A DNA stretch of 60,511 nucleotides from Patescibacteria group bacterium (lineage in GTDB: Bacteria; Patescibacteriota; Minisyncoccia; 2-02-FULL-40-12; GWA2-44-9): the NCBI GenBank assembly GCA_038061995.1, contig JBBTYA010000002.1, positions 1-60,511 on the forward strand, in the 5' to 3' direction. The translations under genes and the position numbers were made by a program. How positions within the stretch are numbered: the first letter of the stretch is position 1; each line of letters starts with the position of its first letter. The notes under the pieces are model-generated. The model did no database searches. It was not told the origin of the DNA and saw only the letters and a program-made list of their open reading frames with translations. Positions 33,744-52,646 of this stretch are shown here, piece by piece.

Positions 33744-34829
33744 ATGCTGTATCGTACGCATCGTCCCCATACATTCGCTGATGTCGTAGGACAGGAACAC
33801 GTGGTCCGCACGCTCAAAGGAGCGCTGACGAGCGGCCGTGTTGCACATGCTTATCTTTTTACAGGTCCTCGTGGCACGGGCAAGACAACGCTCGCGCGCA
33901 TTTTTGCAAAAGCAATCATGTGCCAGAATCGTAGCGCAAGCGGCGAGCCAGATAATACTTGTCCGCACTGTGTTGCGGTAGACAACGGTTCATCACTTGA
34001 TCTCATCGAAATCGATGGCGCGTCACACGGGCGCGTTGATGAAATTCGTGCGTTGAAAGAATCAGCTTCTGTTGCTGCTTCCAGTGCAGAGAAAAAGATC
34101 TTTCTCATTGACGAGGTGCACATGGTAACGACGGGCGCGTTCAACGCCCTGCTCAAAGTGCTCGAAGAACCGCCTTCGCACGTGATGTTCCTTTTTGCAA
34201 CAACTGATCCACAGAAAATTCCAGCAACAGTGCTCTCGCGTGTGCAGCGCTATGACTTACGGCGCCTCACTATTCCTGAAATAGCTGACAAGCTTATGCG
34301 CATCGCTGCAGTAGAAAAGATGCCGCTCAAACCAGACGCAGCCCAGCTCATCGCCGCAGCCGCCGATGGCGCACTGCGTGATGCAGAGGTGCTTCTTTCT
34401 AAAATGCATGGCATGAACGTGCCAGCGCTTGATGTGGCAACGGTCACTGATGCGCTTGGTCTCGTGCCCCACGCACTGCACCCAGAGTTTTTTGGATATT
34501 TGGTGGCGAATGATAGTGCTAGCGCGCTTGCGTTTCTTGCGCGCCTCACAGAAGCGGGGATTAACCTCGACATCTTCGCGCGAGACTTTTTAGAATACGC
34601 ACGGGCGGCCATGATCGCACACGCGAACCCAGCGCTTCTCGCAGGAGTCAGCGGCGTGCATGATCACGCAACGCTCACCGCACACGGGCAAGCATGCACA
34701 TCGGAACAGCACATTCGTATTATCATGGCATTCACCGACGCCCGCGCACGCATGCGCACGGCATCTCTTCCACAACTTCCCCTTGAGCTTGCGGTGTTAG
34801 AACTTGCCGTCACCCCGAGCGCTAATTGA
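33744..34829 (+). CDS. dnaX: DNA polymerase III gamma/tau (short form)
   Basis: LYRTHRP..F.DVVGQ, GPRGTGKT, Zn-binding Cys, IDEVHM, ALLKVLEEPP. Confidence 0.96.
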   Translation: MLYRTHRPHTFADVVGQEHVVRTLKGALTSGRVAHAYLFTGPRGTGKTTLARIFAKAIMCQNRSASGEPDNTCPHCVAVDNGSSLDLIEIDGASHGRVDEIRALKESASVAASSAEKKIFLIDEVHMVTTGAFNALLKVLEEPPSHVMFLFATTDPQKIPATVLSRVQRYDLRRLTIPEIADKLMRIAAVEKMPLKPDAAQLIAAAADGALRDAEVLLSKMHGMNVPALDVATVTDALGLVPHALHPEFFGYLVANDSASALAFLARLTEAGINLDIFARDFLEYARAAMIAHANPALLAGVSGVHDHATLTAHGQACTSEQHIRIIMAFTDARARMRTASLPQLPLELAVLELAVTPSAN

Positions 34830-34854
34830 CAGAAGCTAGAAAGAGTTTTATACT
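34826..34854 (+). promoter_or_regulatory. Sigma70-type promoter
   Basis: TTGACA-17-TATACT, with the -35 overlapping the dnaX stop. Confidence 0.85.
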
Positions 34855-34879
34855 CCAGTCTCTTTCAAGGAGGTGAGGA

Positions 34880-35113
34880 GTGAACATTCACGTCTTCGTG
34901 TCCACAGTTTTGGAGCTTGCTGTGATGTGGTGGCTTACCATCGTACTCACTACTGCTTCCGTGATCTGGGCGAAGAAGGGAGCTGGGGAGGAGGAGTACC
35001 TCGAGTCTTCGGGATACCTGCTCGGGTCCAGTGTGCTTGGAGGGTGCTCGGCGTTCTCCATGCTACGAGCCATCATCCTCATGAAGACGCTCGTCAATTT
35101 CTTCGCCCCCTAA
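34880..35113 (+). CDS. Small 2-TM hypothetical protein (orphan cassette)
   Basis: AAGGAGGTGAGGA SD before GTG; own promoter and terminator. Confidence 0.7.
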   Translation: MNIHVFVSTVLELAVMWWLTIVLTTASVIWAKKGAGEEEYLESSGYLLGSSVLGGCSAFSMLRAIILMKTLVNFFAP

Positions 35114-35120
35114 CCCCTCT

Positions 35121-35160
35121 GGCCGGACGTGCGTTCTACGCATGCCCGGCCTGGTTTTTT
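35121..35160 (+). terminator. Intrinsic terminator
   Basis: GGCCGG..GCG-ttcta-CGC..CCGGCC followed by T6. Confidence 0.8.
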
Positions 35161-35196
35161 ATTGCGAGAACTTTTACGGATGCGTATACTAGAAGC

Positions 35197-36369
35197 ATGA
35201 TCAACGTCATCTTGCTGGGGATCACCTCACTCCTTACTGATCTTTCCAGTGAAATGATCGTCCCGATTCTCCCGTTCCTTATTCAATCGCTTGGCGGTGG
35301 TGGCTTAGCGATCGGACTTGCGTTTGGCGTGGGCGATGCGGTCGCCGCGCTCATGAAAGTGTTCTCGGGCTACTGGGCTGACCGCACCAAGCGATTTAAA
35401 ACATTTGTGTTCGTCGGCTATTTCTTTTCTGCATTTGCGAAGTTTTTCTATCCGTTCATTTCCAGTTGGCAGAGCATCGCAGTGTTGCGCCCTATCGAAC
35501 GCTTAGGCAAAGGATTTCGCGACGCGCCTCGTGATGCCATTGTATCTGAATCAGTACCACCAGAGATGCGAGGAAAAGCGTTTGGTGTCCAGCGTGCTAT
35601 GGATAGCGTTGGTGCGCTGATCGGTTCCGTTGCGGTGCTCGTGCTCTTTCTCATCTTCGGGCTTTCACTGCAGACGCTCTTTTTCTTTGCGGCGCTTATC
35701 GGGCTCGTTGCGGTGTTCCCGATCTTCTTCGTGCGCGTGCCTAGCAACCTCACGCTTTCTCGCAAGCGCATTGGATTTCGCGAACTCCCATTGAAGGCCC
35801 GCCACTTCATCGCTATTGCAACGGTGTTCGCGATCGCTAACTTTAGCAACGCATTCTTCATTCTCCGCGCACAGAGTTTGTTCGTTGATCTCTCGTTCCA
35901 AGACTCGCTTTCGCTTGCGTTGGTGCTCTACATCTTCTTTGGTATTTTTGATGCTGTGTTTTCAGAGCCCGCGGGTGCGCTGTCAGATCAGCTTGGTCGC
36001 CGCCGCATTATTCTCACCGGATATCTTCTCTTTAGCGTGGTGTCGCTTGGGTTCATGGTAGTGCCGTATATCGCACACACTACCGTGACGCAGTTTCTCA
36101 TCATGCTCATCTTCTTTGCGCTTTACGGCGTCTTCCGTGCCTTCATAGACGCATCACAGCGCGCCATGGTTGCTGATCTCTCTGACCCGGGCCAGCGCGC
36201 AACCGCGCTAGGCACTTTCGAAGCCGCAACGGGCCTTGCCGCAATTCCTGCAGGGCTCATTGCGGGGTTCTTGTGGGATTTCTCTCCTACGCTCACCTTC
36301 GCGCACGGGTTTGGTTTTAGTATTCTCGCCAGTGCATTGCTCCTCGTCTTCATCCGCGGCCAAAAGTAG
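35197..36369 (+). CDS. MFS transporter
   Basis: SLLTDLSSEM, SGYWADR, GKGFRDAPRDA, GALSDQLGRR; start reassigned to ATG 35197 (TATACT 6 nt upstream). Confidence 0.92.
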   Translation: MINVILLGITSLLTDLSSEMIVPILPFLIQSLGGGGLAIGLAFGVGDAVAALMKVFSGYWADRTKRFKTFVFVGYFFSAFAKFFYPFISSWQSIAVLRPIERLGKGFRDAPRDAIVSESVPPEMRGKAFGVQRAMDSVGALIGSVAVLVLFLIFGLSLQTLFFFAALIGLVAVFPIFFVRVPSNLTLSRKRIGFRELPLKARHFIAIATVFAIANFSNAFFILRAQSLFVDLSFQDSLSLALVLYIFFGIFDAVFSEPAGALSDQLGRRRIILTGYLLFSVVSLGFMVVPYIAHTTVTQFLIMLIFFALYGVFRAFIDASQRAMVADLSDPGQRATALGTFEAATGLAAIPAGLIAGFLWDFSPTLTFAHGFGFSILASALLLVFIRGQK

Positions 36370-36419
36370 TCTTGTTTTTTAGGAGAGAATCTTCTATAAC
36401 CCATGATAAGGAGGTGGCT

Positions 36420-36986
36420 ATGGGTCGGATCATTCGCATTCCGTTGCGAGTTCGCTACGTTGAGCTTGGATCGGGCATGCACGACAAGCGCGTGAGCTAT
36501 CTGACCGTTCAGAAACAGGGGATTGAGTTGGCTTTTGAGTCTTCACACATTGACCCCGTTACTGACATGATCAACTTCAAGCTCACTAATGCCAAGATCC
36601 GATATGACGACATTCTCGTGACTGCGCAAGATGCGCTCTCTGCGTGTGAGATACTCACGCGACATCAGGGGTGGAATACAGGATCTGGGGAGCATCGCTA
36701 TCGGGCGGTCTCGATCGACGTTCGTCGTCCCATAGTGGCTCTCCCGCACTGTCCCCACATGTGGAGCAATAAAGAAGACGAACTGACCTGCGGGGAGCCC
36801 GATGAGAGCGGCGTGGGAGAAAGTGGTATGTGTTTTCTCGCAGGATTCGCACCACCAGATTTCTGCCCCGTTTCGGAACCGTATGAGCGCGCCTGTGAGC
36901 GTGTGCTCAGCATGGCGCGCCACCGGCGGGTGCGGACGTCGACTATTGCGTTTCAGGGTCTTCGCCTGCGTGTCATCGAGGCATAG
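36420..36986 (+). CDS. Hypothetical protein with 4-Cys cluster (orphan cassette)
   Basis: AAGGAGGT SD before ATG 36420; followed by a terminator. Confidence 0.7.
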   Translation: MGRIIRIPLRVRYVELGSGMHDKRVSYLTVQKQGIELAFESSHIDPVTDMINFKLTNAKIRYDDILVTAQDALSACEILTRHQGWNTGSGEHRYRAVSIDVRRPIVALPHCPHMWSNKEDELTCGEPDESGVGESGMCFLAGFAPPDFCPVSEPYERACERVLSMARHRRVRTSTIAFQGLRLRVIEA

Positions 36987-36998
36987 TGCTTCGTGCAG

Positions 36999-37037
36999 CT
37001 CCTCTGCGCAGTCGGTGCGTAGGGGAGTTTTCTTTTT
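36999..37037 (+). terminator. Intrinsic terminator
   Basis: CTCCTCTGCGCA-gtcgg-TGCGTAGGGGAG followed by a T tract. Confidence 0.8.
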
Positions 37038-37083
37038 ATAAAAAACGAAGCCCCAGGGGTTGCCTGGGGCGGGGGGGGGGGTG

Positions 37084-37779
37084 TTATGACCAGTTGTCGA
37101 CGATTCGGCGCAGCGCATCAACGCGCGCCGCTGTCTGCCATGGAAGGAGCCTGAAGATCTGGATGAGTCTCTCCATGCGCATCGTCTCGCGCAGTTCGAA
37201 GCGTGCGATGTCTTCGATGTTCTTCAAGCAGATCACTTGGAGCTCGTGGCCGTTGTAGAACCGCTCCAGCATGCCCCACACAGTGTTGAGATGCTGAAGG
37301 TTCCGCTCTCGCGTGGCGATCTGGATCGCGTGCTGCACGATCGTCTCCGTGAGGTGCCCTGCGGTGGGAGCGTATTCCAACAAGCTCCACACCGCTTCGA
37401 ATGAGGCGGCGTTCTTCGCCTTCACCATCCCGACCTTCATGAGTCGCTCCAGCGCCAGTTGGCGCACGGGGCTGCTCGTGGGAGCGTTGCGAAAGATAAT
37501 CCCGAGCTCTTCGTAGGTCTTCGCGCGATTGGTGAGCCACCAATCGAGGATGTGTTCCACGAGCGGGTGTTCGGGGCCCACTTCTTCCACCGCGCGAGCG
37601 ATGATAGCGCGCAAGCCGTCACACGAATGGGTGATCGTGAGCGCCTTATCCGAGCGCTCGCACAGGCGCGCATCATCGACGTGGATGAAGTTGAGCGCGA
37701 GGCGCACCTCCATAGTCGAAATTCCGAGCTTTGTTGCGACGTCTTCGATGTGCCGCTCTTGCTGCGCTCTATTTGCCAC
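37084..37779 (-). CDS. Hypothetical all-helical protein (orphan cassette)
   Basis: AAGGAGG SD before GTG 37779, upstream TGTGGTATAAC -10-like element, terminator at about 37040-37070. Confidence 0.7.
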   Translation of the reverse strand: MANRAQQERHIEDVATKLGISTMEVRLALNFIHVDDARLCERSDKALTITHSCDGLRAIIARAVEEVGPEHPLVEHILDWWLTNRAKTYEELGIIFRNAPTSSPVRQLALERLMKVGMVKAKNAASFEAVWSLLEYAPTAGHLTETIVQHAIQIATRERNLQHLNTVWGMLERFYNGHELQVICLKNIEDIARFELRETMRMERLIQIFRLLPWQTAARVDALRRIVDNWS

Positions 37780-37863
37780 AGTGCCTCCTTGGCGCACGTT
37801 ATACCACATAATACAAAGAATGACAAAATCGAATTTTCTTTAGCGTTTGCTACTATGCAGGGT

Positions 37864-38214
37864 ATGACAACGCTTCGTCTTTCTGCATCTGAACAGGTAT
37901 ATCGCGACGCTATCACACGTGGCGCGCTGACGGGTCCATGTCCTTTGTGCGAGAAGGAGGCCATCCAAACATTTATGCACTGGCGCCTTGTGCAAAACGA
38001 TTTTCCTTACGATCGCATCGCGCACAAGCACGATATGCTTATTCCGAAACGGTGCGTCACAGAAGCTGATCTTTCCCCAGAAGAGCGCGCAGAGCTTTTT
38101 GAGCTCAAGCGGGGAGCGGTGAATGATATGTACGACTATCTTATTGAGGCCCTCCACAAAAAGAAATCGATTCCTCATCACTTCCACATACACTGTATTA
38201 CACCGAAAGAGTAG
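37864..38214 (+). CDS. HIT-like protein
   Basis: CPLC, NDFPY, HDMLIPKR, C-terminal HFHIH triad. Confidence 0.75.
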   Translation: MTTLRLSASEQVYRDAITRGALTGPCPLCEKEAIQTFMHWRLVQNDFPYDRIAHKHDMLIPKRCVTEADLSPEERAELFELKRGAVNDMYDYLIEALHKKKSIPHHFHIHCITPKE

Positions 38215-38388
38215 CAAAAGAAAAGAGCGAGGTGCGTGAAGCCCCGCTCATTTGTTTTCTGCAGCATGGAGCAGGGAAATAGAGACCCTCCTCGTTTGAT
38301 TGTTAGTCTTTGGGAGAAGCCCACGCGCGCCTCTCCCACATTGGCTCTACATATTATACATTAAAAATACAGAAAGTACAATATTGTT

Positions 38389-38417
38389 TTGACGCACGTG
38401 TCTTTTTCCTGTATTCT
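38389..38417 (+). promoter_or_regulatory. Sigma70-type promoter of the tRNA locus
   Basis: TTGACG-17-TATTCT ending 8 nt before the tRNA 5' fragment. Confidence 0.8.
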
Positions 38418-38425
38418 GGCCCTAT

Positions 38426-38467
38426 TGCGGGGTCGTCCCTGGCCGGGCAGGCTAATGGTAGGACAGC
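38426..38467 (+). pseudogene. tRNA-Gln 5' fragment with a 15-nt palindromic insertion
   Basis: TGCGGGGTCGTC+CCTGGCCGGGCAGGC+TAATGGTAGGACAGC matches tRNA nt 1-27 apart from the insert. Confidence 0.9.
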
Positions 38468-38468
38468 T

Positions 38469-38726
38469 ATGGCTTTCTTCGTGTATATTTTGAAGAGCGA
38501 GAAAGATAACGGGCTGTACGTTGGCATGTCGCAAGATGTAGGTAAGCGTCTCGCCTCGCATAATTTCGGATCCACTCGCTCAACAAAATATCGAAGGCCG
38601 CTGAAGGTGATTTATGTTGAAGAGTATTCTACGCGGGTAGAGGCACGTGCTCGGGAGAAGTTTTTAAAAAGTTACGCTGGCTCGTCTGAGAAGATGAGTA
38701 TCGTAGAACATTGCGGGGTCGTCTAA
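38469..38726 (+). CDS. Small GIY-YIG endonuclease
   Basis: FFVYILKS...LYVGMS..V.KRL..HN.G..RSTK.RRP...Y.E....EA..REK.LKS. Confidence 0.92.
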   Translation: MAFFVYILKSEKDNGLYVGMSQDVGKRLASHNFGSTRSTKYRRPLKVIYVEEYSTRVEARAREKFLKSYAGSSEKMSIVEHCGVV

Positions 38727-38782
38727 TGGTAGGACAGCGGCCTTTGAAGCCGTGAATCTTGGTTCGAGTCCAGGCCCCGCAG
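38712..38782 (+). tRNA. tRNA-Gln (TTG)
   Basis: Acceptor TGCGGGG/CCCCGCA, anticodon arm GCGGC-CT TTG AA-GCCGT, T arm CTTGG-TTCGAGT-CCAGG; CCA not encoded. Confidence 0.97.
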
Positions 38783-38794
38783 CAAGGAGCGAAG

Positions 38795-38998
38795 GCAACG
38801 CAGTGCCCGAGAGCAGTAGCGACGGGTACATACATTGCCCGGAGCGATGTATCATCAGCAGATGATACCGCGAGGGCAGGAGCCTGAAGCCGAGATCGGC
38901 GATGACCGAGCGTGAGCGAGGAAATACTAAAGGTCAGTAGACCGTATGTACGGCAAGGTCGAGAGCGGAAGGTGAGGGAAGGCCCCCCTGCAGTATTC
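38795..38998 (+). other. Multi-hairpin non-coding region after the tRNA
   Basis: GTATCATC-agca-GATGATAC nested in TGCCC/GGGCA; GCCGA/TCGGC; CCGTA/TACGG; GGAAATACT/AGTATTCC. Confidence 0.5.
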
Positions 38999-39005
38999 CT
39001 AATCC

Positions 39006-39457
39006 ATGAAACCCCTCCCAACCCTCTTTTTGAAAGCAGCCATCGTGCTCATCGGCATCGGCGCTCTTGCCTTCCTACTTATAGAGCCCCACTTTGAGGG
39101 GAGAAATGTGAACGCCACACTCTTTGAAATTTACTTTAGAGACCCCTTCCTCGCATACGCATACATCGCTTCCATTCCATTCCATTCTTCATTGCGCTCT
39201 ATCAGGCGTTGGAGCTCTTAGGAAGCGCTGAGCGAGGCGAAGCACTCTCACGGAAAGCTCTGCGTACAATCCGACACTGCGCGATAGCCATCATTGGTTT
39301 CGTGGTGCCCGGAGTAGTCTTCATCCGGTTTTTCAGTGGCAGTGATGACGCCGCTGGCGGAGTTGCTATGGGTGCGCTCGTCATCTTGGGATCACTTGTT
39401 GTCATCGCCACATCCTCAACGCTCGAACGAATCGCGCAACAGGGTACAGAGCGCTAA
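39006..39457 (+). pseudogene. DUF2975-like membrane protein, frameshifted
   Basis: EPHFEGRN..ATLFEIYF.DPFLAYAYIASIPF N-half and KALRTIRHCA C-half are in different frames, split at (TCCAT)3. Confidence 0.8.
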
Positions 39458-39458
39458 A

Positions 39459-39487
39459 TTGACACCTAGTTAACTTTATTGTATCTT
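39459..39487 (+). promoter_or_regulatory. Sigma70-type promoter
   Basis: TTGACA-17-TATCTT. Confidence 0.65.
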
Positions 39488-39535
39488 ATACATCGATCTT
39501 TCCCCCGTATCTTTCTGGGGAGGAGGTGAGGAAGA

Positions 39536-39640
39536 GTGGCGCGCGATTGCAACCACGACGGCAAGTGCGGCACCAAGAACCACAGCGGCAACAGCAGTCA
39601 CGGGTGGTGCAAGCACTGCAAGACCTGCAACCCCCGCTGA
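39536..39640 (+). CDS. 34-aa Cys/His-rich peptide
   Basis: GGAGGAGGTGAGG SD, GTG start, MARDCNHDGKCGTKNHSGNSSHGWCKHCKTCNPR*, followed by a hairpin; below the ORF track cutoff. Confidence 0.65.
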   Translation: MARDCNHDGKCGTKNHSGNSSHGWCKHCKTCNPR

Positions 39641-39654
39641 CCAACAAGTCGTGA

Positions 39655-39689
39655 CATGGGGGAGGCTCGCATAGCTCCCCCATGTTTTT
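39655..39689 (+). terminator. Terminator-like hairpin
   Basis: CATGGGGGAG...CTCCCCCATG followed by TTTTT. Confidence 0.7.
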
Positions 39690-39705
39690 CATAGGGAGGC
39701 ACCAA

Positions 39706-39930
39706 GTGGCTCAAGTGAGCAAGCCGTTTCGTGAACTGACGAAAGGGGAGGCGGAGAAGATCATTCGAGGGATCGTGAACTCGTCTCACTCGGAAGAAGA
39801 GATCCGCCGGCGCCTGACGGAGGCGGGCTTCAGTGGAGCGCACGCGGCTGTCTACACGCACAGCTTCGGCGACATGTTCCAAGCGATGGTGATGGTCTGC
39901 TCCCCGCGTGGGGAAATCATCAGCGTCTAG
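39706..39930 (+). CDS. Small hypothetical protein
   Basis: GGGAGG SD before GTG 39706. Confidence 0.65.
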   Translation: MAQVSKPFRELTKGEAEKIIRGIVNSSHSEEEIRRRLTEAGFSGAHAAVYTHSFGDMFQAMVMVCSPRGEIISV

Positions 39931-39948
39931 TTTCACAAGGAGAAGGCT

Positions 39949-40164
39949 ATGAGCGTTCGAGAACAAGCAGAAGAAGTCGTCGAGTCTCTCGACGACGCGA
40001 CGTTCTTCACCGCGCTTCAGGGGGAGTGCGAAGAGACGCTCTTCCTCCTGAGGACGCGAGGGCCGAGGGGTGGAACGAAGGGATGGCACGCGCTCATGCG
40101 CGCACACATGAGCAGCCTGCACAAGCTCACCGGAACGGCCTTGGGCCTCGACAAGAAGAAGTAG
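39949..40164 (+). CDS. Small hypothetical protein
   Basis: AAGGAG SD; followed by a terminator. Confidence 0.65.
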   Translation: MSVREQAEEVVESLDDATFFTALQGECEETLFLLRTRGPRGGTKGWHALMRAHMSSLHKLTGTALGLDKKK

Positions 40165-40181
40165 ACATCACGACGACGTAC

Positions 40182-40210
40182 GGCGGCTAGCGATAGCCGC
40201 CTTTCTTTTT
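40182..40210 (+). terminator. Intrinsic terminator
   Basis: GGCGGCTA-gcga-TAGCCGCC followed by TTTCTTTTT. Confidence 0.85.
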
Positions 40211-40259
40211 GCAAAAGTCTAGCATTCCCATTGGTGAGCGCGTAGAATAGAGCCTATCT

Positions 40260-40604: not shown

Positions 40605-40652
40605 GTACTCACCATACTTGGTTTCGCTGGAGAGCGGGAGTAGAATGAGGAT

Positions 40653-40865
40653 ATGAAAAGCTATCTCAACATACTTTTGGCGGTGTTGGTTGTGGTAGTG
40701 CTTGGCTTAGTGTTTGCTTCTTTTGATAACGCTCCTGCGCCAGGAGGGAATGGGGGAAATGGTGGGCCGGTAGCATGCACGATGGATGCGAAGATCTGCC
40801 CCGATGGCTCCGCGGTAGGCCGCACCGGTCCTCGCTGTGAATTTGCTCCGTGCCCCGGTGAGTAG
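40653..40865 (+). CDS. Small exported protein with CT.DAK.CPDGS.VGR.GP.C.FAPCP motif
   Basis: Signal/TM segment plus a 4-Cys motif; paralog of 47741..48319. Confidence 0.8.
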   Translation: MKSYLNILLAVLVVVVLGLVFASFDNAPAPGGNGGNGGPVACTMDAKICPDGSAVGRTGPRCEFAPCPGE

Positions 40866-40926
40866 CTATGTGCGGTAGCTTGACCGTCTTCCTTTTGTAT
40901 AGCACAATAGCGCACGGAGGTTTTGC

Positions 40927-41232
40927 ATGAGCTTGATCACGCAGGTGGCGTACTTCGAGATGCACGATTCGTGCGGGCAGATCGTCTACTACAAAGACGG
41001 GGAGCAGCGTAGAACCGATCCCTACTTCTCGAAGGACTTCGCGGTCCTGATGTGCCGCACCCTCTTTCTTCTGAAGTGGATTTCGGAAGAGGAGTTCATG
41101 GCGGTGCGAGAGCAGATCTCCAACGCGGAAGAACTTCTCGAAGGAGGTTGGCCGACCCTTTCGGATGAGGAGCTCCTCGAGATCTCCAACGGATTTCTGA
41201 CCATGGGAAGCCCGTCGGAAGCCGTTCACTAG
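40927..41232 (+). CDS. Small hypothetical protein (orphan cassette)
   Basis: GGAGGT SD, upstream TTGACC; terminator at 41240-41277. Confidence 0.7.
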   Translation: MSLITQVAYFEMHDSCGQIVYYKDGEQRRTDPYFSKDFAVLMCRTLFLLKWISEEEFMAVREQISNAEELLEGGWPTLSDEELLEISNGFLTMGSPSEAVH

Positions 41233-41239
41233 TCCCTTC

Positions 41240-41277
41240 ACGCCCTGTGCACCCGTTGCATAGGGCGTCTGTTTTTT
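41240..41277 (+). terminator. Intrinsic terminator
   Basis: ACGCCCTGTGCA-cccgt-TGCATAGGGCGT followed by a T tract. Confidence 0.8.
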
Positions 41278-41305
41278 AGGAATGATGTGGGATAGAATGA
41301 CTGCA

Positions 41306-42319: not shown

Positions 42320-42347
42320 GACATAGTACAACTGGCCAGTATAATAA

Positions 42348-42376
42348 TTGACATAAGGTCTATAACTTTATATAAT
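42348..42376 (+). promoter_or_regulatory. Perfect-consensus sigma70 promoter
   Basis: TTGACA-17-TATAAT. Confidence 0.9.
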
Positions 42377-42466
42377 ATTTTTACTGGAGTGCTACGGCAC
42401 TACCAGAGGCTGTGGTGACTGAACGCCTACTGGCGTATCGGCATCACATTAACAAAGAGGAAGCAC

Positions 42467-43429
42467 ATGGAATTCGCCGGTTTGTTGTTGAACGCCGCAA
42501 ACGTGTTCATCTGGATCTTCGGGCTCTTGATGATGGCGGCTGGCGCGATCAAGCTGATCGCCAAGCGTGTGCGCGGGCAGTGCTATATCGTCTACAACCA
42601 CAAGAACAATCGCATCGCCGTCTGCACTGCGGATCAGTTTCAGAAGGCGCCGCCACGCACGGCTGGGTACTACCGAATCGTGCGCGAGGTGAAGTACTTC
42701 AGCCGGCTCTCGAAGTGCGCCGCTGCGTTCCACCGGCTCGCCGAGCAGGGGTTAGTTCGCTCTTCTGACGAGCTCTTCGTACCCTTCTTGTCGAGCATGC
42801 ACATGACGCAAGAGGCGCAACGGAAGCTGTTCGCCAACGCTAACCTGGACGACGGCGATCTCACCGCTGAGCCTCCGGCGTGGGGAGAGGAGATGCTCCA
42901 TGAAATGCGAGAGGCGAACTGGCTTCGCCTCTTCGCCTTCAGCGGGTACTCTCGGTTCTTGCCGCTGGTGTTGGAGATTGTGAGTCTCGTGATGGCAGCT
43001 CTGTTGGCGGTAGCAATGGTAGCCTACGTCTTCCGTTCGCCTCAGGACAGATCTCATGTGGAGGCCCGTTTCCACTACTTCACCAACGGAGAACGAGCCG
43101 TTCCCATCACGGTTACGGACGCTGAGCTTCCGAAGTTGCCCATGCGCGACATGGAGGCGCAGTATCGGCAAGTGCAGCGAGGCATCGTGTTTCGCGTGAT
43201 GCCCATCGGCGGCGGCCTGGACTACGGCTGTCTCTCACAGATGGACGGACGGCATGTGTGCGGGTTCGCGGCACGGGAGCTCGGATGGCGTCTCGGCACG
43301 CTTGCGTTTCTGCGACCTGGCCGCGCAAGTCAGAACGGCCTTGTCCAGGGCGCTGAATGGCTCTGGTGGGGCATCAACGAACGCGAAGCTGATGCGCTCG
43401 AGCGCGTCGGCTTCAAAGTGACGCACTAG
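42467..43429 (+). CDS. Hypothetical 2-TM membrane protein (orphan cassette)
   Basis: 320-aa ORF, AGAGGA SD, C/G-ending codons, own promoter and terminator. Confidence 0.75.
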   Translation: MEFAGLLLNAANVFIWIFGLLMMAAGAIKLIAKRVRGQCYIVYNHKNNRIAVCTADQFQKAPPRTAGYYRIVREVKYFSRLSKCAAAFHRLAEQGLVRSSDELFVPFLSSMHMTQEAQRKLFANANLDDGDLTAEPPAWGEEMLHEMREANWLRLFAFSGYSRFLPLVLEIVSLVMAALLAVAMVAYVFRSPQDRSHVEARFHYFTNGERAVPITVTDAELPKLPMRDMEAQYRQVQRGIVFRVMPIGGGLDYGCLSQMDGRHVCGFAARELGWRLGTLAFLRPGRASQNGLVQGAEWLWWGINEREADALERVGFKVTH

Positions 43430-43436
43430 TTCTTCC

Positions 43437-43477
43437 CCCCAGAGTGGCGGCACCGCCTCCACTCTGGGGATTTTTTT
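43437..43477 (+). terminator. Intrinsic terminator
   Basis: CCCCAGAGTGG...CCACTCTGGGG followed by T7. Confidence 0.85.
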
Positions 43478-43514
43478 ATTGTGCGTGCATGCGCGGACGC
43501 GGTATACTACATAC

Positions 43515-45583: not shown

Positions 45584-45601
45584 GGTATACTTTCTAAAAA
45601 C

Positions 45602-46024: not shown

Positions 46025-46062
46025 CTTGCAGGGGATTTCTAAGGGGCGTACAGTTGGGAGGC

Positions 46063-47181: not shown

Positions 47182-47200
47182 ACCTGTGGTACTATAGGGC

Positions 47201-47695
47201 ATGCGTTATATCATTCTTCTCATTGTTGTTTTGGGCGGTGGGTGGTTACTGTGGCAAAAAGGGGACACCACTCTTGAATATGCGAGTGATTATGGAAATG
47301 CAGCATACACTATAGAAGGGAAGCGCGTGCAATTAGTGGAGGGCGCCGCAGAAGCCGAGGGCGTTATTACGCAAGAGTTTGGCAACGAGGTGATGGGCGA
47401 TTTTTCTGGTGATGGCATTGCTGACGTTGCCTTTATTTTGGCACAACAACCTGGTGGCACAGGCACGTTTTATTACATTGCTGTTGCGCGTGGTGCTGAA
47501 GGTGGCTATGTAGGCACGAATGCTCTTTTATTAGGCGATCGCATTGCGCCTCAAACAACTGAGATCCGCGACGGAGCTATTATCGTGAACTACGCTGATC
47601 GAAAGCCGGGCGAGCCTATGACCGCTGATCCTTCAGTGGGGGTCTCCCGTACGTTCCGCATGGAAAGCGGTATTTTGAAAGAAATTACTCAGTAG
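47201..47695 (+). CDS. Membrane-anchored hypothetical protein
   Basis: N-terminal TM; FGNEVMGD, GGTGTFYY, LGDRIAPQ, VNYADR. Confidence 0.75.
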   Translation: MRYIILLIVVLGGGWLLWQKGDTTLEYASDYGNAAYTIEGKRVQLVEGAAEAEGVITQEFGNEVMGDFSGDGIADVAFILAQQPGGTGTFYYIAVARGAEGGYVGTNALLLGDRIAPQTTEIRDGAIIVNYADRKPGEPMTADPSVGVSRTFRMESGILKEITQ

Positions 47696-47740
47696 CATGC
47701 TCTTCTTGGTATTCGTGGAGAGAGCGAGTAGACTGAGGAC

Positions 47741-48319
47741 ATGAAAAGCTACTTAAACATTCTCCTTGCGGTGTTGGCAGTGGTGGTGCTGGGTGTTGTG
47801 TTTACGTCTTTTGATAATGCGCCAGCTCCTGGAGGTATCGCTTGCACTGAGGAAGCGAAATTGTGCCCTGATGGTTCTGCGGTGGGGCGTACGGGGCCGA
47901 ATTGCGCCTTCGCGCCATGCCCGGGGACGATCGCCTATACCAATAGTGATTATGGATTTGCACTTGCGTTACCCCAAAGCTGGAACGACTTTACAGTGGT
48001 GAAGGGAACTCGAGAGGTTCGCGACATAGCAACGGGTTTAGTAGTGGGCTCAGCGCCAACTGTCGCCATTCGCCATCCAAAGTGGACAGAGGCCGTGCCA
48101 CGCCAAGATGTTCCAGTTGATGTGTATACGCTTGCTCAGTGGGAGGGTATTGCTGCGGGAAAGTATTCGGTTGGTGCCGCGCCTATGGCGCCTACAGAGC
48201 TTGCGCGCAGTAGTCGCTATGTCTTTGCGCTCCCCGCTCGCTACAACTATGCATTTCCAGCTGGGTTTGAAGAGGTAGAAACTATTCTCTCTGAAGGTGC
48301 GCTTTCTGTGCTGCGGTAG
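47741..48319 (+). CDS. Exported protein: 4-Cys motif plus a C-terminal domain
   Basis: N-terminus near-identical to 40653..40865, then YTNSDYGF.L.LP..W. Confidence 0.8.
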   Translation: MKSYLNILLAVLAVVVLGVVFTSFDNAPAPGGIACTEEAKLCPDGSAVGRTGPNCAFAPCPGTIAYTNSDYGFALALPQSWNDFTVVKGTREVRDIATGLVVGSAPTVAIRHPKWTEAVPRQDVPVDVYTLAQWEGIAAGKYSVGAAPMAPTELARSSRYVFALPARYNYAFPAGFEEVETILSEGALSVLR

Positions 48320-48338
48320 TTGTTGGGGATAGTGGGTA

Positions 48339-48367
48339 TTGACTTTTTTGGCCAAATATGATAGTAT
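48339..48367 (+). promoter_or_regulatory. Sigma70-type promoter
   Basis: TTGACT-17-TAGTAT with extended TG. Confidence 0.75.
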
Positions 48368-48372
48368 GACAA

Positions 48373-48611
48373 CACTGAGCAGTAGAGCTCACCACCTCTC
48401 ACTTTCAGGGCTTCAGAAAGCCAGTAACTTGTATCTCTTTTTGTAGATTCTAGCTATCTTTCAGGCAAACAGACTCGTAAGCATTTCGCTTTATTTTCGT
48501 CGATCGGCCTCAGCAAACATAGTTAGGTATTGGTTTTCTAAAACACTGAACAGCTCAGTCATCTCAGTTCGGAGAAACAAAAAGCACCACGCAATGTGGT
48601 GTTTTTTGTTT
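48373..48611 (+). ncRNA. Candidate AT-rich small RNA
   Basis: Promoter-to-terminator unit with no transcribable ORF; end-to-end ACTGAG/CTCAGT and GAGC/GCTC complementarity. Confidence 0.45.
48575..48611. repeat. Palindromic repeat copy 1 (bidirectional terminator-like)
   Basis: AAACAAAAAGCACCAC-gcaat-GTGGTGTTTTTTGTTT. Confidence 0.85.
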
Positions 48612-48703
48612 GTCAGAGGTATTGATTTTTAAAAGATTAATTGTATATTATGAGAAGGACGTTTGGCCGTTAAACTTCGTTCTTTTGAAAAAAGGAGAAG
48701 CCC

Positions 48704-48904
48704 ATGGGCTTCTGGAAGGCAAGTAAGCCGCACGACTCGGACAGTCCGATCGGGCGGCACATCGACGTGTACCATACGGATGATCGAGGTAAGCGCGATC
48801 AGCCGCATCATACCGACATGAAGATCGACTACGACGAATCCAAGCCGACCACGCAGGACATCCGCACGGACCTGCTGCAGACGGTGGACCTTCGCAACAA
48901 GTAG
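48704..48904 (+). CDS. Small hydrophilic hypothetical protein (orphan cassette)
   Basis: AAAGGAG SD; C/G-ending codons in an AT-rich context. Confidence 0.6.
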   Translation: MGFWKASKPHDSDSPIGRHIDVYHTDDRGKRDQPHHTDMKIDYDESKPTTQDIRTDLLQTVDLRNK

Positions 48905-48950
48905 TCGGAGGAGAGCTGGGCATCTCAAAAAACTGCCCCCCTATTTTTAT

Positions 48951-49235
48951 ATGGATATTCCCATCTCTCATACAAAAGGAGTACTTTCTTCGGGTGACGC
49001 ATGGGACGAAGCCCTATTGGAACGAGTCCGCTCTCTCGCGAGTACGCTTTCTTTTGCAACATTAGCAATGGTGTGGCTCCGTGAGCGACAAGTTGCCGGG
49101 GCTTCTGAAGAGGCAGTGCGCCAGCTCATGCGCGACCTCTCGCATTTTTCACATCAAGAACTTGTCGATCTCATTCATGAATTGGGCTCCGCTGCTGGTG
49201 AGCGGATTCTTAAAGAATACGGGAAAGATCGCTAA
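48951..49235 (+). CDS. Small hypothetical protein
   Basis: 94-aa ORF ending just before repeat copy 2. Confidence 0.55.
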   Translation: MDIPISHTKGVLSSGDAWDEALLERVRSLASTLSFATLAMVWLRERQVAGASEEAVRQLMRDLSHFSHQELVDLIHELGSAAGERILKEYGKDR

Positions 49236-49245
49236 CGGTTTATAC

Positions 49246-49280
49246 AAACAAAAAGCACCACAATACGTGGTGTTTTTTGT
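49246..49280. repeat. Palindromic repeat copy 2
   Basis: AAACAAAAAGCACCAC-aatac-GTGGTGTTTTTTGT. Confidence 0.85.
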
Positions 49281-49494
49281 AGGGCCTAAGAGCACACGAG
49301 TAATCTTACTTACCCAGCGACTTTCCCTTGCAGTACGGCCGCCCAGCCATCCCTTGCGGTACAACTACCGTACTCCCAAACCCTACATACAGGATGCGCC
49401 TCTTTTGGAGAGCGCCAAGAATTCTTCTGTGGATAACTCGTGAGCGCTTTACTGTGGGTAAAATATGTGGCATACTTCTATCTCCTTTTTTGCT

Positions 49495-50961
49495 ATGGCA
49501 CACGGCGAATCCATTATTCGGTTCGAAAAAGTATCATTTGAATATGGGCACAAGAAGCCCATCCTCTCGGAGGTAGATTTTTCCATTCGCCGTGGAGCGA
49601 AAATCACCATCATGGGACAGAACGGCGCGGGGAAGAGCACACTGTTTCACCTCATCACGCCATCGGGGCATGCGGGGGCGCTTGCTCCAGAGTCTGGCTC
49701 GGTGCATCGTGCACCGGGGCTTACTATTGCTATGGCTCGCCAAGTTATTGCTCGAGATCAGCTCGACATGACGGTGCGAGAATTCTTTCAGCAGTGCTTT
49801 GCGCAGAAGGTGCATGATATTGATCCCAAAATCGACGCAGTGCTTGAGGTAGTAAATCTTCATGCGCCCCATGATCGTATCGTGCGTTCATTTTCTGGCG
49901 GCCAGCAAGCGCGGCTTCTCTTAGCCTCCGCGCTTATCCAAGATGCGGATGTGTTGCTACTCGATGAGCCAACAAACAATTTAGATAAAGAAGGCATTGC
50001 TCACCTGCGCCAGTTCTTGGTGCACTATAAGAAAACGTGCGTGGTTATCTCTCACGACGCAGATTTCTTGAACGCTTTCACTGATGGCGTGCTTTATTTA
50101 GATATTTTCACGCGCAAGATAGAACAGTATCAGGGCAACTACTTTGATGTGGTGGAGCAGATTGCTGCACGTATTGAAAAAGAAAACAGTAAGAATGCCC
50201 GCCTTGCGAAAGAGGCTATAGAAAAGAAAGAGAAAGCAAACTACTTTGCCATGAAGGGTGGCCGGTTGCGCTTGCTTGCAAAGCGTATGCGTGAGGACGC
50301 GGCAGAAATGGAAGACTCGCAAGTTGATGTACGTAAGGAGGATAAAACCATTCGTCCTTTTACTATCCCTGCACAGCAAGGACTTATTGGGCCCGTAGTG
50401 AGCATTTCTTCCGTATCGGTAATCAAGGACCACAAAGCCACCACAAAGAAAGTGAATGTCGTGTTGCATAAAAATCGCCACCTCTTGCTTTCGGGCCCTA
50501 ATGGGATTGGAAAGAGCACGCTTCTTGAGTCGCTCGCATCAGGGAAAGCGAAGGGCGCAGTCATCGCTCCTGGGGTGAAGATCGGCTACTATCGCCAAGA
50601 TTTTTCGACCCTCAATTTTGAACACTCAGTGATGGAATCGCTGAAAACAGTCGGAGCCGGATTAAGTGACGAAGAATTGCGTGGTGTTGCTGCGAGCTTT
50701 CTTATTACCGGAGATACTATTTTTACCAAGATTGGTAGCTTATCTGAGGGACAGAAGGGACTTGTGGCGTTTATCCACTTAGTGTTGCAGAAACCCGGGC
50801 TCCTCATTTTAGATGAACCAACAAATCATATTAACTTCCGTCACATTCCCGTGATCGCGAAGGCGCTTGATGCCTATCAGGGCGCGATGATCCTCGTAAG
50901 TCACGTGCCAGAGTTTGTACACCAGATTCGTATTGATGAAATACTCGAGTTAGGGGAATAG
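49495..50961 (+). CDS. ABC-F family ATPase
   Basis: Two NBDs (GQNGAGKST/FSGGQQ/LLLDEPTNNLD; GPNGIGKST/LSEGQK/ILDEPTNH) with a linker and no TM. Confidence 0.93.
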   Translation: MAHGESIIRFEKVSFEYGHKKPILSEVDFSIRRGAKITIMGQNGAGKSTLFHLITPSGHAGALAPESGSVHRAPGLTIAMARQVIARDQLDMTVREFFQQCFAQKVHDIDPKIDAVLEVVNLHAPHDRIVRSFSGGQQARLLLASALIQDADVLLLDEPTNNLDKEGIAHLRQFLVHYKKTCVVISHDADFLNAFTDGVLYLDIFTRKIEQYQGNYFDVVEQIAARIEKENSKNARLAKEAIEKKEKANYFAMKGGRLRLLAKRMREDAAEMEDSQVDVRKEDKTIRPFTIPAQQGLIGPVVSISSVSVIKDHKATTKKVNVVLHKNRHLLLSGPNGIGKSTLLESLASGKAKGAVIAPGVKIGYYRQDFSTLNFEHSVMESLKTVGAGLSDEELRGVAASFLITGDTIFTKIGSLSEGQKGLVAFIHLVLQKPGLLILDEPTNHINFRHIPVIAKALDAYQGAMILVSHVPEFVHQIRIDEILELGE

Positions 50962-51025
50962 TTGACGAAGTGGCGCATGTGTGACAAAACCCCTTGCGTT
51001 CTTCAAAAAGTGTTATACTAAAGGG

Positions 51026-51514
51026 GTGAAAAATACTATCATTTTCGTTCTCGTAGTGGTTGTTTTGGGCGGTGTAGGGTATCTCCTCAAGGGAGAATAT
51101 GTGGATACTCCAGAGGTGGCAGAGCAAAAAGCAATTGGCGGCACGCTCGATATGAGCGGTAAGGGGCTTACAAAGGTGCCTTCTTATGTGTTTGAAGCCC
51201 GTGAAATCGCAGTGTTAGATCTCTCAAATAATGCACTCTCGGGTTCTCTCCCTGCTGAAGTGCGTCAGCTGCAGAATCTCAAAGTGTTGGACTTGAGTAA
51301 TAACGTATTTACGGGTGTGCCTGCAGAGATTGGCCAACTGGTGAATTTAGAGGTGCTTGATCTTTCCAACAACAAGATCACGGGGCTTCCAAATGAGCTT
51401 GGGAACCTTTCGAAGCTCACCACGCTTGATCTTTCTGGTAACCTATACTCAGAAATGGATCTTGCAGGTATTCGGGCGCGCTTGCCTGCGTCAACGGTGA
51501 TTAAAACACAGTAG
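51026..51514 (+). CDS. Membrane-anchored leucine-rich repeat protein
   Basis: N-terminal TM; repeated LxxLDLSxNxxxGxP units. Confidence 0.9.
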   Translation: MKNTIIFVLVVVVLGGVGYLLKGEYVDTPEVAEQKAIGGTLDMSGKGLTKVPSYVFEAREIAVLDLSNNALSGSLPAEVRQLQNLKVLDLSNNVFTGVPAEIGQLVNLEVLDLSNNKITGLPNELGNLSKLTTLDLSGNLYSEMDLAGIRARLPASTVIKTQ

Positions 51515-51545
51515 ACCCTTGCGAGTCGGCGTCTCTCTTCGTTCT

Positions 51546-51836
51546 ATGTTCACAACGTACTTACGATACATTCGCGATAATCCTCAGCATCTGTGGTTTA
51601 AGCGGAAGTGGTATGGATGGGGATGGACGCCAGCAACGTGGCAAGGGTGGGTGGTTACTCTCGCGTATGTTGGCATCATCGTGCGTCTCAGCTTAACTGT
51701 TGATGAGGCATACATGGGTCAAGAAGTCATTCGTGAGTTTGTTATTCCTGTTGTGGTGCTTACTGCCGCACTTCTTTGTGTGGCATACGCGACGGGCGAG
51801 CGGCCACGTTGGCAATGGGGAGCGCCCAAAGAATAG
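51546..51836 (+). CDS. Small membrane protein (WFKRKWYGWGWTPATWQGW)
   Basis: Trp-rich motif plus 2 TM helices. Confidence 0.7.
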   Translation: MFTTYLRYIRDNPQHLWFKRKWYGWGWTPATWQGWVVTLAYVGIIVRLSLTVDEAYMGQEVIREFVIPVVVLTAALLCVAYATGERPRWQWGAPKE

Positions 51837-51838
51837 GA

Positions 51839-52084
51839 ATGTACGTTGTTTATATTCTGAAGTGTCGGGACGGTAGTTTGTATACAGGTATCACCACCGA
51901 TGTGGTGCGTCGTTTGCGCGAGCATAAGACGGGGAAGGGCGGTAACTATACGCGCGCTCACGGCGCAGTGCGTATGGTGTACCAAGAACGGTGCGGCTCG
52001 CGGAGTACCGCACTGAAGCGTGAAGCAGCTATAAAACGCCTTCCGCGTGTGCAAAAAGAGGCGCTCGTAAACAGGCGCGTATAA
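51839..52084 (+). CDS. GIY-YIG nuclease (YhbQ/YazA-like)
   Basis: YVVYILKCRDGSLYTGIT.D..RR..EH..GKG..YTR, ALKREAAIK. Confidence 0.92.
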   Translation: MYVVYILKCRDGSLYTGITTDVVRRLREHKTGKGGNYTRAHGAVRMVYQERCGSRSTALKREAAIKRLPRVQKEALVNRRV

Positions 52085-52127
52085 TTATCTTCTTTTCAGA
52101 AGAGTGGGAGGGGTGTACAGTAGATGT

Positions 52128-52289
52128 ATGAATCACAATACTTCTTCGGATGCGGTGTATGGTATGGGGCTTATTGGCGCGGCAGTGTATTTCATCCAGC
52201 AAGCAGATTCATTTAGTACCGGGCTTCTAGGGCTTTTGAAAGCATTTGTGTGGCCAGCACTTTTAGTATACCGCTTCCTTGCGCTCTAG
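52128..52289 (+). CDS. Small membrane protein
   Basis: VYGMGLIGAAVYFIQ..SF..GLL..LKAFVWPA.LVY. Confidence 0.7.
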   Translation: MNHNTSSDAVYGMGLIGAAVYFIQQADSFSTGLLGLLKAFVWPALLVYRFLAL

Positions 52290-52327
52290 TGGGCAGTAGA
52301 GTATACCTTACGCTTAGGAGGCATCAC

Positions 52328-52597
52328 ATGGCTGAAGAGGTGAGCGTTGTATCCTTTTTCGTTTGTTCGGATGAAAAATGTCGTCTTAGCTGGCGGCATG
52401 GCCATTTCACTATCCCGCTTGGGTCCGGGCTGGGCGAGATCTGGTCCAAGGCACTCTTCTCGCAGGCGAGCGCGCGTGAGTACATTTGGGAGCACTTTCC
52501 GCGAGAGGACCGAGAGCGTCTTCAGAAGGAAGTGGGAGCCACGGAGCTCCCGCTCATGCTCGAGGATGACATTGGTGACCCTGACGAGGACGAGTAG
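52328..52597 (+). CDS. Small hypothetical protein (orphan cassette)
   Basis: AGGAGG SD; terminator at 52609-52646. Confidence 0.7.
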   Translation: MAEEVSVVSFFVCSDEKCRLSWRHGHFTIPLGSGLGEIWSKALFSQASAREYIWEHFPREDRERLQKEVGATELPLMLEDDIGDPDEDE

Positions 52598-52608
52598 CTG
52601 TCAGCCTA

Positions 52609-52646
52609 CACCCCGTACGAACGTATCGTGCGGGGTGGTTTTATTT
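52609..52646 (+). terminator. Intrinsic terminator
   Basis: CACCCCGTACGA-acgta-TCGTGCGGGGTG followed by a T-rich tract. Confidence 0.8.

Follow-up and report, generated by a model that had tools for sequence, protein, structure and literature searches.

The window analysed here is a 60,511-nt stretch of contig JBBTYA010000002.1 (NCBI GenBank assembly GCA_038061995.1), which comes from an ultra-small groundwater bacterium of the Patescibacteria and carries, at about 51% GC, housekeeping genes that lie mostly on the plus strand. Between these resident genes, from 34.8 to 52.6 kb, are scattered ten open reading frames (ORFs), U1 to U10, which we refer to as units and which differ from the residents in the way their translation appears to start and in the composition of their synonymous sites. 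The units are probably real, mostly monocistronic protein genes that form a flexible gene class particular to one Paceibacteria (Patescibacteria) clade, shuffled by recombination and with a composition that is held in place. They are restricted to the lineage and their proteins evolve fast, and their high GC content at third codon positions (GC3) persists over alleles saturated at synonymous sites while the neighbouring genes stay at 0.50.

A sequence-only reading of this DNA had proposed about eight dispersed single-gene cassettes with strong Shine-Dalgarno (SD) sequences, C- or G-ending codons and, in most cases, their own promoter and terminator, placed singly between leaderless genes with no integrase, insertion sequence or attC site in view. 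As a description this stands. All eight of the named sites are present, and they resolve into the ten ORFs listed in Table 1. GC3 averages 0.759 in the units (0.61-0.94) and 0.502 in 55 resident genes (standard deviation 0.043, range 0.39-0.61; Mann-Whitney p = 3e-7), and the SD duplex energy, computed against the canonical 16S tail, averages -12.0 kcal/mol in the units (-6 to -18) compared to -2.4 in the same 55 residents (p = 1.5e-6). An SD of -8 kcal/mol or stronger precedes nine of the ten units and three of the 55 residents; beyond the 34.8-52.6 kb region, strong SDs at true gene starts are confined to the operon-internal genes at 10505 and 33091. Consensus-like -35/-10 pairs lie upstream of six units (U1, U3, U4, U7, U9 and U8, the last matching at 12 of 12 positions), and all units except U5 and U9 are followed by GC-rich hairpins with T-tracts, the hairpin of U9 being weak. 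One promoter is common to U4, U5 and U6, with a hairpin after U4. Judged by these putative signals, U1, U3, U4-U6, U7 and U8 each possess the promoter and terminator that characterize an independent transcription unit of the phage moron type, while U2, U9 and U10 appear to have weaker promoters or terminators.

The residents follow another pattern. Upstream of the start codon, 26 of the 55 resident genes have a TAnnnT box whose end lies 5-9 nt (mode 6) away, compared to 5.3% of internal in-frame ATG and GTG codons (p = 6e-19), an enrichment that is somewhat inflated because some of the resident starts were picked after the box had been seen; the gene calls of public relatives agree on the starts of MFS, PGA_cap, ABC-F and other genes. 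This layout suggests that many residents are leaderless, and two expression grammars appear to coexist in the window, one of leaderless residents and one of SD-led units. Neither an integrase nor a transposase was found among the ORFs scanned in the window, and no attC-like or other repeat common to the units was detected.

Table 1. Positions of the ten units, with their predicted promoters, Shine-Dalgarno sequences (SD) and terminators, and of leaderless-type starts of resident genes; all coordinates are those of the window.
Feature	Position	Strand	Product	Signals and remarks
U1 ORF	34880-35113	+	77 aa	TTGACA-17-TATACT, AAGGAGGTGAGGA
U1 unit	34826-35160	+		promoter 34826-34854; SD 34867-34879; terminator 35119-35160
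U2 ORF	36420-36986	+	188 aa	TAAGGAGGTGGCT
U2 unit	36370-37037	+		SD 36407-36419; terminator 36997-37037
U3 ORF	37084-37779	-	231 aa	TTGTCA-17-TATAAC, AAGGAGG
U3 unit	37040-37826	-		promoter and SD 37780-37826; terminator 37040-37070
U4 ORF	39536-39640	+	34 aa	GGGGAGGAGGTGAGGA; GC3 0.94
U5 ORF	39706-39930	+	74 aa	AGGGAGG
U6 ORF	39949-40164	+	71 aa	AAGGAGAAGG
U4-U5-U6 unit	39459-40210	+		promoter 39459-39487; internal hairpin 39655-39689; terminator 40182-40210
U7 ORF	40927-41232	+	101 aa	ACGGAGG
U7 unit	40880-41277	+		promoter 40880-40908; SD 40914-40926; terminator 41240-41277
U8 ORF	42467-43429	+	320 aa	perfect TTGACA-17-TATAAT, 84-nt leader, AAAGAGGAAG
U8 unit	42348-43477	+		promoter 42348-42376; two-hairpin leader 42383-42466; terminator 43435-43477
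U9 ORF	48704-48904	+	66 aa	AAAAGGAGAAG
U9 unit	48622-48948	+		promoter 48622-48649; SD 48689-48703; weak terminator 48918-48948
U10 ORF	52328-52597	+	89 aa	TTAGGAGG
U10 unit	52290-52646	+		SD 52314-52327; terminator 52609-52646
MFS gene, leaderless-type example	35162-35199	+		TATACT box ends 6 nt before ATG at 35197
Other leaderless-type starts	40653, 41306, 43515, 47741, 51026, 54021 and others			

Close relatives of the organism were gathered by protein look-ups and compared locus by locus. They comprise CP129474.1, a complete genome of 615 kb (loci L086 and L092), the contig L093 from Hainich groundwater, and several Logan contigs (L081-85, L087-89, L095 and L096). In core proteins they share 74-97% identity with the window, and core genes compared between the window and these sisters give synonymous divergences (dS) of about 1.0-2.1 with ratios of non-synonymous to synonymous divergence (omega, dN/dS) of 0.01-0.17, so that synonymous sites are saturated. 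Among GTDB species representatives, in a scan anchored on PGA_cap, relatives reached at most 58% identity and showed neither synteny nor unit homologues. Contigs of a second, independent study (runs X4-X6) cross the junctions MFS/U2, U3/HIT, g40653/U7 and U8/g43515 with zero differences; they represent the same genotype, with no strain polymorphism seen. Since the junctions are identical in that study, the mosaic is not an assembly artefact, and a chimeric assembly was ruled out.

Orthologues of U1, U3, U4, U5, U6, U7, U8 and U9 occupy the same sites in at least one relative (U4 in L092 and L093, U5 and U6 in L093 only), and these syntenic orthologues retain promoter, SD, terminator and a GC3 of 0.63-0.94 next to neighbours at 0.42-0.61. 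The sequence-only reading had set its idea of captured modules against vertical conservation at syntenic positions with codon usage equal to that of the core genome; most units are indeed syntenic in the sisters, but their codon usage is unequal to that of the core. In the holB-MFS interval, the window, L093 and L095/L096 carry a unit of about 370 nt whose ORFs (77-82 aa) are 25-31% identical with an omega of 0.45-0.94; the terminator and the leaderless promoter of MFS are conserved among these U1-site alleles, and the U1 promoter and SD are semi-conserved. The whole U1 unit is missing from L092 (at L092 9985-10010, in the genome CP129474.1), exactly between two AGCAT microhomologies, where the TGA of holB overlaps the ATG of MFS (ATGA) and the leaderless promoter of MFS itself is gone. 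This clean loss identifies L092 as a deletion derivative; the ATGA overlap would couple translation of MFS to that of holB. U2 is a clean single-gene insertion of about 670 nt between MFS and U3, absent from L092, L095 and L096, and U10 is a clean single-gene insertion of about 345 nt relative to the sisters in the interval between the gene at 52104 and g52701; both are singletons as protein clusters. Units fill the U7/U8 site of the window, L081 and L082 but not that of L086, and the relatives own units that the window lacks, such as those at L086 12106-12486 and L092 12178-12402.

A separate observation concerns the hot spot upstream of the U7 site, where the atypical DNA found in relatives is AT-rich (GC3 0.32-0.40) and not GC3-rich. 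These defence-island-like clusters (L081 3236-7964, L082 2-1874, L083 1572-6074 and L092 20219-21173) encode T5orf172, an N6/N4 methyltransferase, a MutH-like protein, AAA_15 and DUF5677, so atypical DNA whose composition is biased in the opposite direction also enters the same hot spot.

The alleles of the units do not share the history of their flanks. L092 and L095 are 99% identical in holB (dS 0.09) and only 52% identical in U3, whereas the window and L092 are 93% identical in holB and 91% in U3. Likewise, L081 and L082 agree at 97% in AlkZ and 99% in dut, but at 46% in U7 and 52% in U8; the window, which is 84% identical to either of them in AlkZ, has its closest U7 in L082 (74%) and its closest U8 in L081 (69%). 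Between L081 and L082, sliding identity stays at 95-100% with two exceptions: it drops to 30-60% inside the U7 ORF and over the N-terminal two thirds of U8, and rises again at the terminators and in the C-terminal domain of U8. This profile places a recombination breakpoint inside U8, at a domain border; the same drop is seen at U3 between L092 and L095. In closer allele pairs the dS of the units (0.13-0.65) lies below that of the adjacent core genes of window and sisters, and saturation is reached in the most divergent pairs (dS 1.2-1.7). Omega ranges from 0.05 to 0.48 across pairs of units with the window, and up to 0.94 for U1, against the 0.01-0.17 of the residents. The U9 protein is 98.5% identical to that of the sister genome, and the block 48450-49150, which includes U9, g48951 and the spacer upstream, matches that genome at 90-98% over a background of 65-85%. 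The incongruence between alleles and flanks, the breakpoints at ORF borders and the U9 block together imply that cassettes, or parts of them, moved between lineages after these had diverged, with the conserved and nearly identical regulatory flanks (promoter, SD and terminator) as the presumed crossover zones. As the units share no repeat, what took place was replacement of alleles within a locus with occasional insertion or deletion, and not movement between sites. The earlier picture of plug-in single-gene modules therefore holds in part: the units are self-contained and several were gained or lost cleanly (U1, U2, U10, U5/U6 and U7/U8), but they do not travel from site to site. Its proposal of recombination fits the data, in that the exchange of alleles independently of their flanks would be expected of recombination after DNA uptake. 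Around U9, two 89%-identical hairpins (AAACAAAAAGCACCAC...GTGGTGTTTTTTGT, at 48575-48613 and 49244-49280) bracket U9 and g48951; they look like bidirectional terminators, and the bracketed block roughly coincides with the stretch of 90-98% identity.

The leader of U8 (42383-42466 in the window, 9582-9664 in L081 and 3335-3417 in L082) is nearly invariant although the proteins are 46-69% identical, and folds into two hairpins, P1 of 9 bp, which has a UACG loop and shows two compensatory pairs, and P2 of 15 bp; it has no match in Rfam. A profile of the U8 alleles gave full-length matches in 57 representative clusters of proteins of 300-340 aa, and the family spans the Patescibacteria. Three distant members (loci L097, L098 and L099) were examined, all of them amid housekeeping genes and all with promoter, leader (about 95 nt), SD and terminator; the leaders resemble that of U8 in length and have two hairpins with the loops YUAAGG or CCAAGG. 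Next to rplM-rpsI, the L097 homologue combines an extended -10 promoter with a structured leader, an SD and a terminator, and its GC3 of 0.75 compares to 0.53 for rplM (L13) and 0.52 for rpsI (S9). The L098 homologue has the same architecture and a GC3 of 0.61 against about 0.47. As all three keep leader and SD, the U8 family has inherited its leadered, SD-led architecture as an old trait; an excess of GC3 is common in the family but lineage-dependent and is not shared by the ribosomal-protein genes. Among 46 other Paceibacteria loci, an SD of -8 kcal/mol or stronger precedes 9% of the genes, and the clear unit-like cases exceed host baselines of 0.32-0.40 by 0.2-0.3 in GC3.

The difference in codon usage between units and residents is confined to third positions: pooled GC1, GC2 and GC3 (the GC contents of the first, second and third codon positions) are 0.608, 0.422 and 0.741 in the units and 0.618, 0.430 and 0.502 in the residents, with a similar amino-acid composition. 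All synonymous families shift to G as well as C endings, including GGG, CGG, CGA and CCG, codons that translational selection would not be expected to prefer, which indicates a change in base composition at synonymous sites and not an optimisation of codons. This pattern bears directly on the notion that the units are native genes expressed at very high levels and shaped by translational selection for optimal codons. Their promoters at or near consensus, their very strong SDs and a dS below that of their neighbours would agree with it, reduced dS being typical of highly expressed genes in other bacteria. We nevertheless regard it as very unlikely, because the shift is compositional, because the window genes that are expected to be well expressed (RRF, GreA, MreB, Lon and aminoacyl-tRNA synthetases) have a GC3 of 0.44-0.53, and because the ribosomal-protein genes of L097 lack the excess of the U8 homologue beside them; codon pattern and ribosomal-protein control led us to reject translational codon optimisation.

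The atypical composition and SD use of the units could also reflect recent horizontal acquisition from a GC-richer, SD-using donor, either the bacterium that hosts the symbiont or phages by way of morons. That U2 and U10 were inserted in this genome only and form singleton protein clusters, and that the promoter-gene-terminator layout fits the definition of a phage moron (PMC3594210) agrees with this view. It is nonetheless improbable on several counts. No U8 homologue was found outside the Patescibacteria in sets of 5.8 billion and 1.8 billion proteins. None of the ten units has a match in Pfam, PHROGs, PADLOC or NCBIfam, and scans of viral contigs with U8, U3, U2 and the U8-family profile gave no match either. 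GC1 and GC2 are the same as in the residents. Eight of the ten units have syntenic orthologues of high GC3 even though their most divergent alleles are synonymously saturated, and all three distant U8 members keep their expression signals in chromosomal housekeeping contexts, two of them with raised GC3. Finally, unit GC3 lies 0.2-0.3 above host baselines that themselves differ greatly, which fits a local force better than a single donor. The units lack the marks of a compositional islet of recent foreign origin (a donor-like shift at every codon position and homologues in a donor lineage), given the resident-like GC1 and GC2 and the Patescibacteria-type housekeeping contexts of all the U8 homologues examined. 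Neither origin offered by the sequence-only reading is supported by this evidence: a derivation from phage finds no support in the PHROG and viral-contig searches, and capture from a GC-rich host sits badly with the resident-like GC1 and GC2, with the absence of homologues outside the Patescibacteria in the protein sets searched and with a U8 family that is old within the phylum.

A third alternative holds that some of the smallest units (U4, U9, U10 and perhaps U5 and U6) are mainly structured or dual-function RNAs with secondary ORFs. Unit coding regions do fold slightly more stably than codon-shuffled versions of themselves, with z below 0 in seven of the eight tested (-4.0 for U6 and -2.05 for U5) and an average of about 0 in eight resident controls, and conservation of the U9 block extends to non-coding DNA. 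The structure signal is modest, however, and several observations speak for coding: U9 differs from its sister by one non-synonymous and, by estimate, roughly six synonymous changes (omega 0.05), U5 has an omega of 0.42, the U4 peptide keeps its five Cys in three genomes, and a strong SD at the correct spacing and a strong three-base periodicity in composition occur in all of these small units. We therefore hold such an RNA role to be slightly less probable than recent acquisition.

A scan of JGI metagenomes with the U3 alignment, a sequence search of the PDB with the U8-family profile and an Rfam search of the unit region returned no match. U1 encodes a small membrane protein with one clear N-terminal transmembrane (TM) segment and a second hydrophobic stretch judged by eye. 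The AlphaFold2 model of U3 (predicted local distance difference test score, pLDDT, 89) predicts an all-helical, 12-helix repeat protein whose structural matches are generic TPR-like folds only, at TM-scores of at most 0.4. The U7 and U10 proteins are acidic, and that of U9 is charged and His-rich. The U8 protein is a mosaic with two TM segments: about 200 aa at the N-terminus, made up of TM1, a variable domain and TM2, are hypervariable, and the C-terminal 110 aa are nearly invariant.

Our preferred reading, that of a flexible, lineage-specific class of protein genes, can be cast as a tentative mechanism. Core genes would start translation at, or a few bases from, the 5' end of the transcript and without an SD, whereas unit genes would be expressed from a -35/-10 promoter through a 5' leader with a strong SD, G/C-ending codons and an intrinsic terminator. 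Alleles would be exchanged by homologous recombination in the flanks after uptake of DNA, as in the minimal mobile elements of Neisseria. The high GC3 would be no fading signature of a donor; it may be upheld in place, either because selection on the mRNA favours a stable and structured message that is 30S-initiated, or through GC-biased gene conversion at these loci, which are prone to recombination. The 5' hairpin of the U8 leader with its two compensatory pairs, the strong SDs and the stabler folds of the units make selection on the mRNA a candidate. The hypervariable, TM-bearing nature of several products (the small membrane protein of U1 and the variable, TM-flanked part of U8) suggests that they may be envelope proteins under diversifying selection, perhaps tied to interplay with phage or host. 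In its most extended form, which is possible but which we would not favour, Patescibacteria would keep two gene compartments side by side: a leaderless, SD-free core, and SD-initiated monocistronic accessory genes whose synonymous sites are actively kept G/C-rich for a stable mRNA (5' hairpin, very strong SD, GC-rich body and terminator), whose promoter/SD and terminator serve as homology arms, and whose hypervariable ORFs are swapped through competence without an integrase, the products being envelope or interaction proteins in the arms races of a symbiont. Such an arrangement would amount to a chromosomal cassette system that needs neither recombinase nor attachment sites.

Several points weigh against our interpretation. 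The same persistent GC3 would also result if some unsampled reservoir of GC3-rich genes, for instance in an unknown phage or plasmid, kept replenishing the units. U2 and U10 have no relatives at all, and a foreign origin is possible for these two. The L099 homologue of U8, in an AT-rich genome, keeps leader and SD but shows no GC3 excess, and across the 46 other Paceibacteria loci the link between SD and GC3 is weak, though significant (Spearman rho = -0.14, p = 4e-5), so the coupling is not universal. The SD energies refer to the canonical 16S tail, the expression control consists of window genes and of rplM and rpsI of L097, and the AlphaFold model of U8 is poor (pLDDT 48). Start sites, leaderless status and expression levels are all predictions from sequence.

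The residents of the window include uvrB, ruvA, a Mur ligase gene and the genes for Lon, RRF, MreBC, PBP2, GreA, HolB (holB) and dUTPase, as well as those for DHODH, an ABC-F protein, Obg and tRNA synthetases (proline/histidine-type, lysyl- and seryl-). Divergent from U3 lies a HIT-family-like gene (37855-38214; HHFHIH motif) with a leaderless-type TACTAT box; the long ORF listed at 37459-38214 is the same gene extended too far. A GIY-YIG nuclease ORF (38310-38783) abuts and overlaps the 5' end of tRNA-Gln(TTG), and related GIY-YIG genes are located at other variable sites in relatives (L086 11789-12034 and L091 2848-3482). The genes g40653 and g47741 are paralogues, resident small secreted or membrane proteins, and share a 131-nt direct repeat (40617-40747 and 47705-47835, 78% identical) that spans the promoter and a signal-peptide-like N-terminus (MKSYLNILLAVL...). 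Upstream of U10, the window encodes at 52104-52289 a conserved small membrane protein of 61 aa that is 85% identical in the sister genome. Its start may be the ATG at 52128, which a TATAAT promoter and a GGGAGGGG SD precede. The GC3 of this gene is an ordinary 0.46 despite the putative SD, so that SD-led genes are not always GC3-rich.

Among known systems, phage morons are an obvious comparison; they were reportedly described in HK97 and HK022 by Juhala et al. in 2000. A moron is a single gene that brings its promoter and terminator with it (Cumby, Davidson and Maxwell 2012, PMC3594210), and gp15 of HK97, a moron-encoded small inner-membrane protein, blocks superinfection (PMC3594210). Like the units, morons have a promoter and a terminator of their own, a composition unlike that of their neighbours and a presence that varies between collinear genomes, and their products are often small envelope proteins, as some unit products may be by analogy. 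Unlike morons, which are housed in phages, the units are chromosomal, lie between housekeeping genes and gave no phage homologues in the searches above; most of them stay at fixed sites where alleles are replaced, and their putative mode of translation start sets them apart from their neighbours. A location inside a phage or prophage was rejected on the same grounds, namely the housekeeping neighbours and the negative PHROG and viral-contig results. The minimal mobile elements of Neisseria are strain-varying cassettes between core genes that lack integrase, transposase and repeats and whose spread relies on transformation and on homologous recombination in their flanks (Saunders and Snyder 2002; Snyder et al. 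2007; summarised in PMC2784325). The holB-MFS interval, the U2 and U10 sites and the U7/U8 site likewise vary in content, and the units carry neither mobility genes nor terminal repeats. By comparison, the unit cassettes are single tiny orphan genes with their own expression signals within the conserved arms, they differ from the rest of the genome in composition and translation, and transformation is here a supposition.

Other systems share individual traits with the units. Actinobacteria and Deinococcus-Thermus (the 'leaderless' class of GeneMarkS-2) mix leaderless and SD-led genes; the likeness consists in a -10 box at a fixed short distance from many starts and in a minority of SD-led genes, but to our knowledge the SD-led set is not recognized there as a separate GC3-rich, hypervariable, lineage-specific accessory class. 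Integron cassettes are also small single-gene modules, many of them orphans, with strain-variable content. Unlike the units, which are dispersed and mostly carry their own promoter and terminator, they depend on attC sites, an integrase and an array, and an integron system was rejected because neither a repeat shared by the units nor an integrase domain was found among the ORFs scanned. Hypervariable loci of the replacement type, such as O-antigen, capsule, pherotype and bacteriocin-immunity cassettes, resemble the units in showing divergent alleles in near-identical genomes with sharp breakpoints in conserved flanks, whereas the units are single small genes, many close together, with one distinct expression grammar. 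Targets of a diversity-generating retroelement were rejected as well, as no reverse transcriptase domain occurs among the ORFs scanned and as the divergence, with insertions and deletions, extends over entire ORFs or, in U8, over the N-terminal 600 nt, whereas such targets vary in a short C-terminal region. No system that we compared couples initiation mode, synonymous-site composition and evolutionary mode in one gene class. A literature search found no description of such a coupling between SD, GC3 and flexible genes in Patescibacteria, and the gene class seems undescribed in the literature searched.

If the pattern is general, gene callers and expression models for genomes of the candidate phyla radiation (CPR; Patescibacteria) would need two start-site models, and the strain-variable, fast-evolving genes of these tiny genomes could be recognized from sequence by a strong SD combined with high GC3. 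Genes so recognized would provide a shortlist for interactions with host and phage in organisms that cannot be cultured. A GC3 of about 0.75 that persists beside one of about 0.50 past the saturation of synonymous sites may also serve as a natural test bed for distinguishing selection on mRNA from GC-biased gene conversion.

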